The notes under the pieces: model-generated
Databases searched by the model: none
Told to the model about the DNA's origin: nothing
The model's input: the letters and a program-made list of their open reading frames with translations, nothing else
Translations under genes and position numbers: made by a program
Shown: positions 1,009 to 42,641 of the stretch, piece by piece
How the letters are laid out: each line of letters begins with the position of its first letter
Position numbering within the stretch: position 1 is the first letter of the stretch
Virus record (IMG/VR): IMGVR_UViG_2541047714_000011
Length of the DNA: 44,330 nucleotides
Source: a virus
Lineage: Duplodnaviria; Heunggongvirae; Uroviricota; Caudoviricetes
Reading direction: 5' to 3' (one strand)

Positions 1009-1083
1009 GTCCTCTTAGTTAAATGGATATAACGAGCCCCTCCTAAGGGCTAATTGCAGGTTCGATTCCTGCAGGGGACACCA
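1009..1083 (+). tRNA. argW: tRNA-Arg, anticodon CCU
   Basis: 75-nt cloverleaf: acceptor GTCCTCT/AGGGGAC, anticodon loop CTCCTAA, T-arm GCAGG-TTCGATT-CCTGC, 3' ACCA; hand-folded. Confidence 0.85.
1069..1083. repeat. attL core (3' end of argW)
   Basis: Identical 15-mer recurs at 42627-42641. Confidence 0.7.
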
Positions 1084-1199
1084 TTTATCAGTTCGCTCCC
1101 ATCCGTACCAGTCCGCAAAATCCCCTGAATATCAAGCCTTCCGTAGATTCACAGTTCGTCATGGTTCGCGTCAGATCGTTGACAGCCGCACTCCATGAC

Positions 1200-1245
1200 G
1201 GGTAAAAAGTGGATAAAATAATTTTACCCACCGGATTTTTACCCA
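1200..1245. promoter_or_regulatory. GGGTAAAA-type repeats at attL/intS start (putative recombinase or RDF binding sites)
   Basis: gggtaaaaa at 1200-1208 and inverted ttttaccca at 1222-1230 and 1237-1245, the last overlapping the intS ATG; same motif repeated at attR. Confidence 0.4.
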
Positions 1246-2402
1246 TGCTCACCGTTAAGCAGATTGAAGCAGCAAAGCCGAAAGAAAAACCATACCGCCT
1301 TCTCGATGGTAATGGCCTGTACCTTTATGTCCCTGTGTCAGGGAAAAAGGTATGGCAGCTTCGCTACAAGATTGACGGTAAGGAGAAAATCCTGACCGTC
1401 GGGAAATATCCGCTTATGAGTTTGCAGGAGGCAAGGGATAAAGCATGGACCGCGAGGAAAGACATCTCGGTTGGCATCGATCCGGTAAAAGCGAAAAAGG
1501 CTTCGTCTAACAACAATTCCTTTAGCGCCATTTACAAGGAATGGTACGAGCACAAGAAGCAAGTATGGTCAGTAGGGTATGCGACTGAACTTGCAAAAAT
1601 GTTTGATGACGACATTTTACCTATCATCGGCGGCCTTGAAATTCAGGATATTGAGCCGATAAAACTGCTGGAAGTAATCCGCAGATTTGAAGATCGCGGT
1701 GCAATGGAGCGAGCCAACAAAGCCCGCAGAAGATGCGGAGAGGTTTTCCGTTACGCTATTGTCACTGGTAGGGCTAAATATAACCCGGCACCTGACCTTG
1801 CTGACGCCATGAAGGGATACCGCAAGAAGAACTTCCCGTTTCTCCCAGCAGACCAGATCCCTGCATTCAACAAAGCACTGGCAACATTTTCAGGAAGCAT
1901 CATATCGCTCATTGCGACCAAAGTTTTACGCTACACAGCCCTAAGAACGAAAGAGCTTCGCTCCATGCAATGGAAGAACGTCGATTTTGAAAACAGGATT
2001 ATCACTATCGACGCCAGTGTGATGAAGGGCCGCAAAATTCATGTGGTCCCGATGTCAGACCAGGTGGTTGAACTTCTCACTACGCTAAGCTCAATCACCA
2101 AACCAGTCTCAGAGTTTGTTTTTGCCGGGCGCAACGATAAGAAGAAGCCAATCTGCGAGAACGCGGTTCTACTTGTGATCAAACAAATCGGCTATGAGGG
2201 TCTGGAAAGCGGTCACGGATTCAGGCATGAATTCAGCACGATTATGAACGAGCACGAATGGCCTGCTGACGCTATTGAAGTGCAACTTGCACATGCCAAC
2301 GGCGGATCTGTGCGTGGAATTTACAACCATGCTCAGTATCTCGATAAGCGCAGAGAAATGATGCAGTGGTGGGCGGACTGGATTGATGAAAAGGTGGGCT
2401 AA
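1245..2402 (+). CDS. intS: Tyrosine integrase, KplE1/CPS-53 IntS-like (P4 family)
   Basis: Track ORF 1209-2402 (GTG); ATG at 1245 gives 385 aa starting MLTVKQIEAAKPKEK, as recalled for IntS; C-terminal catalytic region with R..HxxR..Y pattern; adjacent to tRNA. Confidence 0.85.
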   Translation: MLTVKQIEAAKPKEKPYRLLDGNGLYLYVPVSGKKVWQLRYKIDGKEKILTVGKYPLMSLQEARDKAWTARKDISVGIDPVKAKKASSNNNSFSAIYKEWYEHKKQVWSVGYATELAKMFDDDILPIIGGLEIQDIEPIKLLEVIRRFEDRGAMERANKARRRCGEVFRYAIVTGRAKYNPAPDLADAMKGYRKKNFPFLPADQIPAFNKALATFSGSIISLIATKVLRYTALRTKELRSMQWKNVDFENRIITIDASVMKGRKIHVVPMSDQVVELLTTLSSITKPVSEFVFAGRNDKKKPICENAVLLVIKQIGYEGLESGHGFRHEFSTIMNEHEWPADAIEVQLAHANGGSVRGIYNHAQYLDKRREMMQWWADWIDEKVG

Positions 2403-2493
2403 CCAACGCTATATCTCAGATAGCACAAAGCCTTGCAATCCAGTGCAAAGCTTTGTGTGTCTCAGTTTTGCCTCATAGGTAACTCTGTGTTAA

Positions 2494-2793
2494 CTACGAT
2501 GCAAGAATCCATACCAATAAGCATCCGATAATTGGGAAAGAAAAATCCAACAAACTTCCCACATCCCACACGCGTGGATCAAAACCTCCCCACCACGGCA
2601 TGTTGACACGTTTCCCTTTCCCAAACTTTTCTATCCAGCGATATTCTGCCTGGGTGTGTTCACGCGCAATGAAGAACGTACAACCGGCTATCGCACCGTA
2701 AGCCCAGTTTCCGGTAAAAATACCAACCAGTACCTGAGCCGCAAAAGCGCAAAGCGAGTGAAGAAATGGAGTGACATCAATGCTCTTAATCAT
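2494..2793 (-). CDS. Hypothetical small inner-membrane protein (99 aa)
   Basis: Track ORF; two or three predicted TM segments; ATG overlaps the tailspike stop (ATGA); sits in the usual lysogenic-conversion position. Confidence 0.5.
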
Positions 2794-4847
2794 GAAACTT
2801 CCCCATTGGTTGAAAATATGGCTCCTCCAACTCCAAGTGTATTTCGTGTTGTGCTCAACCTAAGAGGGCTGGAGTCAGAATTAGAATATCCTGTAGCAGA
2901 AATAAAAGATCCTCCACTAATAGTCAACTGCGGAACATCGGCTATATCTGAATAAGTTCTGTCAGCAACAGTATTATTTATAGCCACATGTGATCCAAAA
3001 AAACTTCTTATTGTTTGGTTTTTAACTTTACTTCCTTCAATGGTTATCCTACTACCACAGTCAGCAATAAATCCTGAATCTGCATCCAGCGTTGCATTCA
3101 TAAAAGAAGCTTCAGATCTCTCTACATCAATCCATCTAATATCTTTTGTGGGATTTGCACCAAATACATGACAAATATTAGAGTTAAACCTTACACCATC
3201 TTGGAGGTGCATTAATTTTTTTATATCTGTACCCCATAGCCTTGGAAAATTAACAGATGCTCCTGCATGGCAATCAAATCCCAACTCAGCCCCTGAGATA
3301 TCTACAGCCTTTCCTGAAATAACAGCACCAGTGTCTGCATTAACGGCTGTTCCACAATTGCGCATATCATTACCAGCAATATCAACACAACTCGCACCAT
3401 CAATACGCACACCAAGTGCACATCCATAAAAACCTTTTTCAATATTTGGTTCAAGGACTTTACCACTTGTTTCTGCATCACTTTCTTCAACGTCATGTCG
3501 TCTTGCATCAACATATGCTGTATGAATGCAGGTTAATCCACGATATGAGCAATGTATAGTTTTATGGTCGCGTATATTAACATTTGAACCATCTCTTACA
3601 TTCCATCCTATATAACAATAGCTTGCACTTGACCCCTGAAAATCTGCTTTAACATTATAAATACAATTAACTGACGCAACCGTACTCTCTGTGCACCGTT
3701 CAAACTTGCTTACAGGCATTGATGCCTTGACATTATTTACCAGTTGCAGGGAAGAGTATCTGCTATAAGAAAAATCACATACGTAATACCCTTCTGGCAT
3801 ATATGCAGCAACACTTTCCTCATCAGGAGCACATCCGGTATGATATGCACTAATTTTTGCACCAAAGCTACCATGAATTCCAACGTAGAACTTTCGAGCA
3901 CCTGAATACGGATAGAAATTAAGTTCAGCTTTTTGAGTTACAATAAATGCACAAACATCGCTATCATCTCTATTTTCTTCAATCTGAATAGCAAATACAG
4001 GACTTTTTGCTGCATCGCAAATGTAAAATAAATATTTGTATTCGTAATACGTCCTAACAGTTTTAGTAAACAAACTGGTATCAGAGAAAACCACTGAGTC
4101 TTCTGATATTATTTTAATCCATGATAAGTCACATCCTGCTGAAATTTCTATTTGCTCATTGAGCACAAAACCGGAAAGAATTTTAATTATGCAAAAGTCA
4201 ATGCCATTTTTCCATAGTGGACGCAGTGCAACAGCCGAGTTTAGAGCATCACTAATAGATTTAAAATTACCATATTCCCCAACTGTTATTGTGAATGCAT
4301 ACCTGGAATTAAATACTGCGGCACTCTCTCCAGAGTTAATAGCTGCAGATATCATGTCATAATTTGATATAAAATCATTTGGCGTGATTATTTCTGCGTT
4401 TTTATTGTGCTGTGTTCTAAGTTTTGAATTTACATGAACACTTTTAACTGCAATACGGGAGTCGTCAACAAGTATTTCATTACCCTCTGTTGCTAACTCT
4501 TGTCTTAACTGATCCGGGTCATACTTCAGCACATTCGGAAAATAGAACTGCTGTGCACCATACGCATCATAAACAGCCATAGAATGGCCTTGCTCAGTTA
4601 CGAATTTGGCAATCTGTCCGTTATATACAGGATAACCAGCAGCGTTAATGATGATTGGTTGCGAAACAGGAACGTGAGAGCCGTCTTCGTTCTCTACATA
4701 AACCTGAATCTGGTTTTCAGGATTTACCGGGTCAGTGTCAATTTTACCGATATAAATTTTGCCATTGGCTACGGCTTTAAAAGAACGCGCCATAGTGAAG
4801 AGTTGCGAAGGCATACTCACTACAACATTGGCTGTAATGTCTGTCAT
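2790..4847 (-). CDS. Tailspike protein; P22 gp9-type N-terminal head-binding domain with a divergent receptor-binding body
   Basis: 685 aa; N-terminus [11 protein letters not shown]...[20 protein letters not shown]...VLKYDPDQ matches the P22 tailspike N-terminal domain as recalled; remainder not recognised; SD GGAG upstream. Confidence 0.85.
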
Positions 4848-4905
4848 TTAATTTGCTCCAGATACAAGGAATCGCCGCAGCATGGCTACGGTGAATTTTG
4901 GGCAT

Positions 4906-4928
4906 AAAAAAACCCAGCCGAAGCTGGG
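4906..4928 (-). terminator. Intrinsic terminator between ant and tailspike
   Basis: Minus-strand hairpin cccagc-uucg-gcuggg followed by a 7-U run. Confidence 0.6.
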
Positions 4929-4947
4929 TCGTTGCGTTGGTTATCTG

Positions 4948-42221: not shown

Positions 42222-42286
42222 TTTATTTATTCATATATTAAAACAATGTAACCAATATTCGAATTGAAGAACTGAAAGAACACCAA

Positions 42287-42310
42287 GCCGCCTGATGGCG
42301 GTTTTTTATT
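42287..42310 (+). terminator. Intrinsic terminator ending the early-left operon
   Basis: gccgcc-tgat-ggcggt hairpin followed by tttttatt. Confidence 0.55.
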
Positions 42311-42317
42311 GCCTGAT

Positions 42318-42333
42318 TTGCAGGTTCGATTCC
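42318..42333. repeat. 16-bp copy of the argW T-arm (ttgcaggttcgattcc) upstream of torI
   Basis: Identical to 1054-1069 inside argW; distinct from the attR core. Confidence 0.6.
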
Positions 42334-42352
42334 CTATTCGGAGATAGCACTC

Positions 42353-42553
42353 ATGCAACACGAACTACAACCTGATTCACTGGTTGATTTGAAATTCATC
42401 ATGGCCGATACTGGCTTCGGTAAAACCTTCATCTACGACCGAATTAAGTCCGGAGACCTGCCTAAAGCCAAAGTTATCCACGGGCGAGCAAGATGGTTAT
42501 ATCGTGACCATTGTGAATTCAAAAATAAGCTCTTAAGCCGCGCCAATGGGTAA
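42353..42553 (+). CDS. torI: Excisionase / recombination directionality factor, TorI-like (AlpA family)
   Basis: 66 aa MQHELQPDSLVDLKFIMADTGFGKTFIYDRIKSGDLPKAKVIHGRARWLYRDH... as recalled for KplE1 TorI; next to attR. Confidence 0.8.
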   Translation: MQHELQPDSLVDLKFIMADTGFGKTFIYDRIKSGDLPKAKVIHGRARWLYRDHCEFKNKLLSRANG

Positions 42554-42568
42554 AATAGCGGGTAAAAT
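42548..42568. promoter_or_regulatory. Direct GGGTAAAAT repeats at attR overlapping the torI stop
   Basis: gggtaaaat at 42548-42556 and 42560-42568; same motif as at attL. Confidence 0.4.
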
Positions 42569-42626
42569 ATTTCTCACATCTAAAAAACATCATTCCAATC
42601 AATCCCCTGCCGCGTCAAGTAGATGT

Positions 42627-42641
42627 CTGCAGGGGACACCA
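42627..42641. repeat. attR core (copy of the argW 3' end)
   Basis: ctgcaggggacacca identical to 1069-1083. Confidence 0.7.

Follow-up and report, generated by a model that had tools for sequence, protein, structure and literature searches.

The window analysed here is the whole of a 44,330-nucleotide (nt) stretch of DNA, IMG/VR virus record IMGVR_UViG_2541047714_000011. It carries an element of 41,573 bp at positions 1069-42641, which is bracketed by two exact copies of CTGCAGGGGACACCA. An earlier note, made from the letters alone, had described this element as an apparently intact mosaic prophage inserted at argW, between yfdC/argW and cscB. The flanks agree with that placement. The left one is composed of yfdC (1-933) and argW, and the right one holds cscB (43083-44330). 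Both flanks encode proteins that match the annotated record ON470589 at 100% identity. The csc sucrose region is known to adjoin the variable argW region (PMC3032704). All of the DNA between the att repeats is phage DNA. Judged by its gene content, the element is very probably a complete, single-copy, P22-like (Lederbergvirus-type) mosaic temperate prophage with no visible lesion. Its features are collected in Table 1.

Table 1. Features of the argW prophage and its attachment sites (positions in the window; aa, amino acids; ORF, open reading frame)
Feature	Position	Strand	Evidence or closest relatives
argW, tRNA-Arg(CCT), integration target, intact after insertion	1009..1083	+	ARAGORN; Rfam tRNA 63.4 bits
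attL core CTGCAGGGGACACCA	1069..1083	+	exact repeat; same as KplE1/HK620 core (PMC2951348)
intS, tyrosine integrase, 385 aa	1245..2402	+	378/385 vs K-12 IntS; 97% vs HK620 Int
Predicted membrane protein, 99 aa	2494..2793	-	PHROG 1443; 100% in JEP4, HZ41; hydrophobic segments
Tailspike, 685 aa	2790..4847	-	Pfam Head_binding; PHROG 5662 full length; 97% JEP4, 99% HZ41, residues 1-685
ant antirepressor	4948..5826	-	Pfam Bro-N, P22_AR_C; PHROG 245; 54% vs P22 Ant
sar antisense RNA	5828..5894	+	Rfam RF00262, 65.1 bits vs gathering score 43, full model
89-aa ORF, N-terminal hydrophobic segment	5889..6158	-	PHROG 27312; 100% in APEC O2-211 prophage
arc repressor	6155..6313	-	88% vs P22 Arc; Arc-family annotation in relatives
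mnt repressor	6404..6661	+	90% vs CUS-3 Mnt, 85% vs P22 Mnt
Three accessory ORFs, 94, 149 and 145 aa	6639..7835	+	PHROGs 4231, 3556, 2651 (unknown function)
gp16 ejection protein, 608 aa	7860..9686	-	75% vs P22 gp16 (609 aa); 98% vs APEC O2-211 homologue
gp20 ejection protein, 461 aa	9686..11071	-	Pfam Inj_translocase; 86% vs P22 gp20, N-terminal half
gp7 ejection protein, 231 aa	11081..11776	-	Pfam P22_gp7 1-230/230; 99% vs JEP4
gp14, 151 aa	11779..12234	-	99% vs CUS-3, HK620, JEP4
gp26 tail needle, 233 aa	12234..12935	-	98% vs HZ41, 611R6; 94% vs CUS-3, full length
gp10, 472 aa	12935..14353	-	Pfam Phage_stabilise 1-469/469; 98% vs CUS-3, JEP4
gp4 tail adaptor, 153 aa	14363..14824	-	Pfam P22_Tail-4; 99% vs CUS-3
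Coat protein, 417 aa, CUS-3 type	15035..16288	-	Pfam P22_CoatProtein; 96% vs CUS-3 (417 aa); 28% vs P22
Scaffolding protein, 297 aa	16307..17200	-	97% vs CUS-3, JEP4, full length
Portal, 733 aa	17291..19492	-	Pfam P22_portal; 100% vs JEP4 (733 aa), 99% vs CUS-3
TerL, 498 aa, chimeric	19492..20988	-	Pfam Terminase_6N/6C; 92% vs P22 gp2; 100% vs JEP4
TerS, P22 gp3 type	20966..21454	-	100% vs P22 gp3; Pfam GP3_package
Small late ORFs: hkbN-like, DUF2560/hkbM-like, Gp49/Sf6 gene 66 family, Rha-family regulator	21478..23418	-	
Rz spanin, 145 aa	23518..23955	-	95% CUS-3, 88% P22, 59% lambda; Pfam Phage_lysis
Rz1, 61 aa, inside Rz, lipobox LGVSAC intact	23571-23756	-	ORF
R endolysin, lambda type, 158 aa	23952..24428	-	98% vs lambda R; no match in P22
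S holin, 107 aa	24412..24735	-	99% vs lambda S; Pfam Phage_holin_3_1
tRNA-Thr(TGT) and tRNA-Asn(GTT), phage-borne	24978..25133	-	ARAGORN; Rfam
Q late antiterminator, phage 21 type, 162 aa	25225..25713	-	1-162/162, near-identical to Q21, PDB 6jnx, 6p18
nin region: ninH, rusA, HNH cassette, DUF1364/ybcO, roi, ninF, ninE, ninB, three small ORFs	25710..29248	-	
Free-standing HNH endonuclease, 174 aa	26258..26782	-	Pfam HNH_3, PHROG 99
Primase-helicase (toprim), 630 aa	29325..31217	-	99% vs mEp043 gp55 (626 aa); PHROG 239
Free-standing NUMOD4/HNH endonuclease, 164 aa	31202..31696	-	PHROG 59
O-like replication initiator, 286 aa	31804..32664	-	99% vs mEp043 gp54 (286 aa); PHROGs 277, 33384
cII	32838..33116	-	99% vs HK620; Pfam Phage_CII
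cro	33225..33419	-	98% vs HK620 Cro; Pfam Cro
OR1, OR2, OR3 operators	33450..33515	.	exact matches to HK620-annotated operators
cI repressor, 238 aa	33526..34242	+	238/238 vs HK620; Pfam HTH_3, Peptidase_S24 (self-cleaving)
hkaS-like, three hydrophobic segments, downstream of cI	34239..34628	+	98% vs HK620 hkaS
OL3, OL2 operators	34737..34775	.	exact matches to HK620
N antiterminator, 99 aa, arginine-rich motif	35200..35499	+	97% vs CUS-3 N
ral, two ORFs, cIII, kil	35578..36987	+	Ral 98% lambda; Kil 100% CUS-3; cIII PHROG 550
Recombination module: 103-aa ORF, RecT (300 aa), Mu Gam-like (162 aa), 104-aa ORF	37069..39071	+	
'ea' region: DUF2737, PHROG 2457, two ead/Ea22-like, PHROG 1714, DUF551-like, eag	39088..42267	+	
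Second tRNA-derived repeat TTGCAGGTTCGATTCC, = argW 1054-1069	42318..42333	+	exact repeat
torI, excisionase, 66 aa	42353..42553	+	66/66 vs K-12 TorI and HK620 HkaC
attR core	42627..42641	+	exact repeat; empty-site test

Insertion site and recombination module

The core CTGCAGGGGACACCA represents the last 15 nt of argW at its 3' end. It occurs exactly twice in the window, where none is expected from 100 shuffles. The boundaries were examined by an in silico deletion, in which window positions 783-1083 were fused to 42642-42941. The resulting 601-bp junction was searched in 5,426 complete E. coli genomes. Many of these have it unbroken and with 601/601 identity, and 1,415 cover it to 80% or more. 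The empty site was recovered at 100% in one piece; therefore the insertion is precise and the boundaries are right. The exact repeats and the empty site bear out the position given in the earlier note. The element is a single precise insertion that regenerates the tRNA gene; its target is the last 15-16 nt of argW. At the level of single bases, 15 of the 16 nt of CTGCAGGGGACACCAT, the argW 3' end, are present twice. The 16th base, next to the attR core, is G (T in K-12), because the right flank differs. Between attR and cscB there is a gap of about 440 bp (42642-43082), part of which is labelled as a DUF4942-domain protein by the Prokaryotic Genome Annotation Pipeline (PGAP) in genomes with the empty site. 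This segment is probably a remnant of an older island.

An IntS-family integrase gene lies beside attL and the gene for a TorI-type recombination directionality factor (RDF) lies beside attR, at opposite ends of the prophage. The KplE1-type integration module proposed before is well founded in this respect. IntS has the Pfam Phage_integrase domain together with the central and arm-binding domains. When attP was rebuilt from 42000-42641 and 1084-2402, it was colinear with the attP-int region of HK620, a viable phage, over 1,954 bp, with 97.0% identity and no gap. By this alignment, the attP arms with the predicted IntS and TorI binding regions are present. Experiments have characterised this type of module, in which int lies at attL and the RDF at attR, and its arrangement is conserved in HK620, Sf6, CUS-3 and other argW prophages. 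The dependence of excision on IntS and TorI was shown on KplE1 and HK620 substrates (PMC2951348, PMC3509656).

The corresponding element of E. coli K-12, CPS-53/KplE1, is indeed a remnant, as had been stated. It is 10.2 kb long and lacks repressor, replication, head and lysis genes. The sequence common to K-12 and the window is confined to 1-2476 and 42303-42641, and the remnant lies between these parts in K-12. The att site, IntS (98%), TorI (100%), the attL and attR arms and the placement of int and RDF at opposite ends are shared. However, K-12 has dsdC in place of the csc region on the right, and an attR core of 16 nt instead of 15 nt.

Two pairs of exact direct repeats adjoin each other in the window, 1054-1069/42318-42333 and 1069-1083/42627-42641. 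The last 30 nt of argW are found at the right end as the 16-mer TTGCAGGTTCGATTCC and the 15-nt core, which are parted by 293 bp holding torI. The same split layout is seen in K-12 KplE1, HK620, phiv205-1 and 611R6. In the GenBank record of CUS-3, the 'att core' is put on the T-arm 16-mer and not on the IntS core, and the record stops before torI. The apparent lack of a TorI match in CUS-3 was considered as a sign of a different RDF. This was rejected, as the record ends at the 16-mer, upstream of the place of torI. The empty-site test favours the 15/16-nt IntS core over the 16-mer as the true boundary. The division of the 30 nt of argW around torI suggests that an originally continuous, tRNA-derived attP was split by insertion of the RDF gene. 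The 16-mer at 42318-42333 may now act in the regulation of torI.

Gene modules and their relatives

All of the modules named in the earlier note are present by sequence comparison and by Pfam, PHROG and Rfam matches. The morphogenesis genes follow the order terminase-portal-scaffold-coat-gp4-gp10-gp26-gp14-gp7-gp20-gp16, which is colinear with P22, CUS-3 and JEP4. The Pfam families P22_CoatProtein, P22_portal, P22_Tail-4, Phage_stabilise, P22_gp7 and Inj_translocase are all matched over the full profile length. The families and the order agree with the P22-like morphogenesis block described earlier, but the subtype had to be refined. The coat, scaffold, portal and gp4 proteins are 96-99% identical to those of CUS-3 and only 28-39% to those of P22. 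By sequence, the head genes are classed with the CUS-3/JEP4 subtype and the terminase alone is truly P22-type. Against JEP4, the portal and TerL are 100% identical, TerS and gp7 99%, gp10 and gp4 98%, the scaffold and the tailspike 97% and the coat 93%. In the TerS gene, the 22-mer of the P22 pac site is found exactly at 21166-21187. P22 gene 3 gave a match to this 22-mer in the same search.

The terminase large subunit is a chimera. Its residues 1-485 are P22-type (92%), while the last 12 amino acids (19492-19530) match the CUS-3 tail DYSSYSIPCGVG and not that of P22. The portal start codon (19490-19492) overlaps the TerL stop codon (TGATG). In P22, TerL residues 483-499 are required for binding to the procapsid portal (PMC5290284). 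The joint lies exactly at the start of this portal-binding tail, which is an instructive detail of the element and indicates that the tail was inherited together with its cognate CUS-3-type portal. The chimera is not unique, since identical TerL (498 aa) and portal (733 aa) proteins occur in JEP4. The CUS-3-type tail is at odds with the claim of the same paper that all P22-like phages keep the basic tail (PMC5290284).

The tailspike has a P22-type head-binding domain at residues 1-113 (Pfam PF09008, 1-113/113, E = 4e-66), and its N-terminal domain gives PDB sequence matches to the P22 and Sf6 tailspikes. The PDB sequence search gave no match past residue 160, and the head-binding domain is the sole Pfam domain. 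The receptor-binding part has a low GC content of 37%. A single-sequence AlphaFold2 model of residues 115-685 was unusable (mean predicted local distance difference test score 35, predicted template modelling score 0.26). The receptor was not identified in the JEP4 paper (PMC8425383). The start codon of the 99-aa ORF at 2494-2793 overlaps the tailspike stop codon. This ORF is a constant companion of this tailspike type, and its slot is the site of O-antigen or capsule modification genes in other P22-like phages.

The immunity region immC (32800-34981) is 98.5% identical to that of HK620 over 2,182 ungapped bp. It has divergent cI and cro genes, OR and OL operators, cII, N and a cleavable S24 repressor with HK620 specificity. 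The earlier description of a lambda-like immunity is right for the layout. However, the sequence is that of HK620 immC, and the cI repressor is just 43% identical to that of lambda. In lambda, the position downstream of cI, occupied here by the hkaS-like gene, is that of rex. Upstream of N there is an extra segment of 203 bp (34982-35184), absent in HK620. Its reading as a disruptive insertion was rejected because CUS-3 carries it. It runs from the nutL region to N, is about 92% identical in CUS-3, and marks a mosaic joint within the early left leader.

The earlier note had missed a second immunity region, which is of the P22 immI type. It lies between the tailspike gene and gene 16 and is composed of mnt, arc, ant and sar. 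The start codon of ant is uncertain, as the ORF is open to 5892 and the first in-frame ATG is at 5826. The sar RNA covers the region directly upstream of this ATG. The 89-aa ORF lies in the interval from arc to ant, which holds no ORF in P22.

The lysis cassette is of lambda type and contains an S holin, an R transglycosylase and Rz with an embedded Rz1. The lambda-like lysis of the earlier account stands for S and R, but Rz and Rz1 are of the P22/CUS-3 type. The two phage tRNA genes are placed between the phage 21-type Q gene and the holin gene, an arrangement shared with Sf6 and 720R6. The genes of the nin region are 95-100% identical to their counterparts in HK620, CUS-3 and 611R6. The recombination module matches PHROGs 148 and 253 and is 87-97% identical to that of 611R6.

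Seven isolated phages together account for about 75% of the element at a nucleotide identity of 90% or more. JEP4 (MT740315), a P22-like phage from chicken faeces, shares the P22-type terminase with the CUS-3-type portal, coat and scaffold, the receptor-binding part of the tailspike, the 99-aa ORF downstream of it and Q21. It differs in having its own integrase, immC, recombination genes and immI region, and its replication genes encode O and a DnaB-type helicase. Phage tRNAs and HNH cassettes are lacking in JEP4, and its gp16 is just 55% identical. HK620 (AF335538 / NC_002730) shares the argW module (Int 97%, HkaC identical to TorI, attP 97% without gaps), immC (cI identical; Cro, cII and hkaS 98-99%) with its operators, many nin genes, and S and R. 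In contrast, its head genes are Sf6-type (portal 56%, coat unmatched), its terminase and tailspike specificity are others, its Q is lambda-type, its replication genes are O/P, and it has immI remnants only. CUS-3 (E. coli K1 RS218, CP000711) is likewise an argW prophage and shares the coat, scaffold, portal, gp4, gp10 and gp14 at 96-99%, as well as Rz, N, Kil and the tailspike head-binding domain. It differs by its endosialidase tailspike, neuO, an Sf6-like terminase, and another immC and replication module. P22, from Salmonella, shares the gene order, the terminase with the pac site, Arc, Mnt, sar, the ejection-protein set and the tail-machine families. However, it uses another Int and Xis to integrate at thrW, the identity of its coat and portal is only 28-35%, and it has a T4-type lysozyme, gtrABC, sieA, and another immC and Q.

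Good descriptions exist both of P22-like prophages at argW (HK620, Sf6, CUS-3, Kapi1, phiv205-1 and many others) and of their recombination module. From these comparisons, the combination of modules is new and its parts are known. The element is a clean example of module shuffling and carries little weight beyond cataloguing.

Such a composite might also come from an assembly artefact, in which a contig links pieces of at least two prophages, lambdoid or P22-like, from one genome through sequences that they have in common. In its favour, neither half of the window is covered to more than 80% by any complete E. coli genome or phage record, and E. coli often has several lambdoid prophages that share nin and lysis sequences (a median of 4 matching places per genome). 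However, mosaicism of this kind is normal in P22-like phages (PMC8954989; bioRxiv 10.64898/2026.05.19.726188). The TerL/portal joint recurs in JEP4 and the two HNH junctions recur in 5 and 32 other genomes. The gene order is canonical with each essential gene present exactly once, and both ends fit a single precise insertion. An artefact is considered highly improbable, and a single mosaic prophage is the preferred reading.

Completeness and predicted function

For the evaluation of intactness, gene lengths and identities were compared gene by gene with P22, CUS-3, HK620, JEP4, HZ41, mEp043 and lambda. All essential genes are as long as their functional counterparts. No insertion sequence (IS) element, frameshift or premature stop was found in the essential genes by this comparison. 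The modules had been called uninterrupted, which holds at the level of the ORFs, although two HNH cassettes are inserted at gene junctions.

The life cycle that the prophage would follow can be drawn from the anatomy, boundaries, full-length ORFs and nearly identical modules observed here; its regulation, inducibility and particle production are predictions. The phage was very probably inserted into argW through site-specific recombination by IntS. In lysogeny, the HK620-type cI would act at OR and OL, and immI would provide a backup circuit in which Mnt and Arc repress Ant together with the sar antisense RNA. Upon DNA damage, cI would cleave itself through its S24 domain. Antitermination by N would open the left operon with the RecT/Gam recombination genes, the ea genes and torI, and also the right operon with the O-like initiator, the primase-helicase, the nin genes and Q. 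IntS and TorI would then excise a circle of 41,558 bp carrying the HK620-type attP. The phage 21-type Q would switch on late transcription, and the P22-type terminase would start headful packaging at the putative pac site in the TerS gene. Packaging would fill a T=7 head of the CUS-3/JEP4 type, to which the tail machine (gp4, gp10, gp26) and a JEP4/HZ41-type tailspike would be added. Finally, the lambda-type S and R with Rz/Rz1 would lyse the cell. The prophage is likely to be inducible to infectious particles.

Several points weigh against a complete and functional prophage. First, missense defects and regulatory mutations are invisible to a comparison of ORFs. Second, isolated phages offer no close match for gp16 or for the C-terminal half of gp20, the best identities being 98% to a prophage and 75% to P22. 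Third, we infer rather than observe the compatibility of all modules, the ejection proteins included, because their exact combination occurs in no complete E. coli genome or phage record; the limited coverage of both window halves by any one record belongs here as well. Fourth, the element of 41.6 kb exceeds relatives that have the same head genes by 1-2 kb (JEP4, 39.2 kb; CUS-3, about 40.5 kb), which trims the terminal redundancy if the headful size is equal. Fifth, five of the six operators are exact matches to HK620 and OL1 is not. Sixth, the primase N-terminus is changed by the NUMOD4/HNH cassette, reading MEAPLSPSEL instead of MTPSEL.

The element could on these grounds be complete in sequence but defective in function, as an early-stage cryptic prophage with a missense or regulatory lesion or with incompatible modules. 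Ejection proteins that do not suit the head type, or a genome too long for the headful capacity, would be examples of the latter. Besides the unique combination, the divergent gp16 and part of gp20, the OL1 difference and the genome length, decay at the argW locus is known from a close relative. At argW, the closest chromosomal relative is the prophage of avian pathogenic E. coli (APEC) O2-211, whose coat gene is frameshifted (14882-16136 in that sequence). Therefore, decay does occur in this prophage lineage, while the coat gene is intact here. Against this reading, there is no truncation, frameshift or IS element in about 65 ORFs, and most of the essential proteins have counterparts in plaque-forming phages at 93-100% identity. 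The recombination module is intact, as are the att sites, and the chimeric TerL/portal joint is identical in viable JEP4, which forms plaques (PMC8425383). A defective prophage is clearly unlikely by these data, and a complete temperate prophage remains the preferred reading.

If inducible, the element would represent a phage of sucrose-positive E. coli that is capable of generalized transduction. Its tailspike is common to JEP4, a phage used in a biocontrol cocktail. Therefore, such lysogens could affect the susceptibility of their hosts to such cocktails.

HNH cassettes and accessory genes

The 174-aa HNH gene is inserted exactly between rusA and ybcO/hkbD, and these flanks are adjacent in CUS-3 and HK620. 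The NUMOD4/HNH segment was mapped to 31194-31692, at the initiator/primase junction, by comparison with mEp043 and 720R6. Neither cassette breaks any ORF. Truncation of the primase by the NUMOD4/HNH cassette was considered and rejected, because the protein has 630 aa against 626 aa in mEp043 with 99% identity, and the first few residues alone are replaced. Most relatives have no insert at these two junctions. Neither cassette occurs at the megablast level in any of 50,697 phage records, where the flanks are found directly abutting. In E. coli genomes that match the junction-spanning queries, the rusA/ybcO junction is occupied by HNH in 32 of 995 and the initiator/primase junction by NUMOD4/HNH in 5 of 292. 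The pattern of presence and absence fits that expected of free-standing homing endonuclease genes. They may be active homing endonucleases that spread through the lambdoid replication and nin modules. If so, HNH homing would bias the inheritance of the flanking genes in mixed infections. The joint proposal of active, spreading homing endonucleases together with an RDF gene inserted into attP and a role for the 16-mer is regarded as doubtful.

Ten accessory ORFs were scanned with PADLOC, and no credible defence match was obtained; a DndE match with E = 0.0075 was judged as noise. The three ORFs at 6639-7835 gave no Pfam or PADLOC match and are 99-100% identical in the APEC O2-211 prophage. They follow mnt, at the position of sieA in P22, and the last one has a signal-peptide-like N-terminus. 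In other strains, this slot is occupied by genes of the Rap1a/Tai family or with a Panacea domain.

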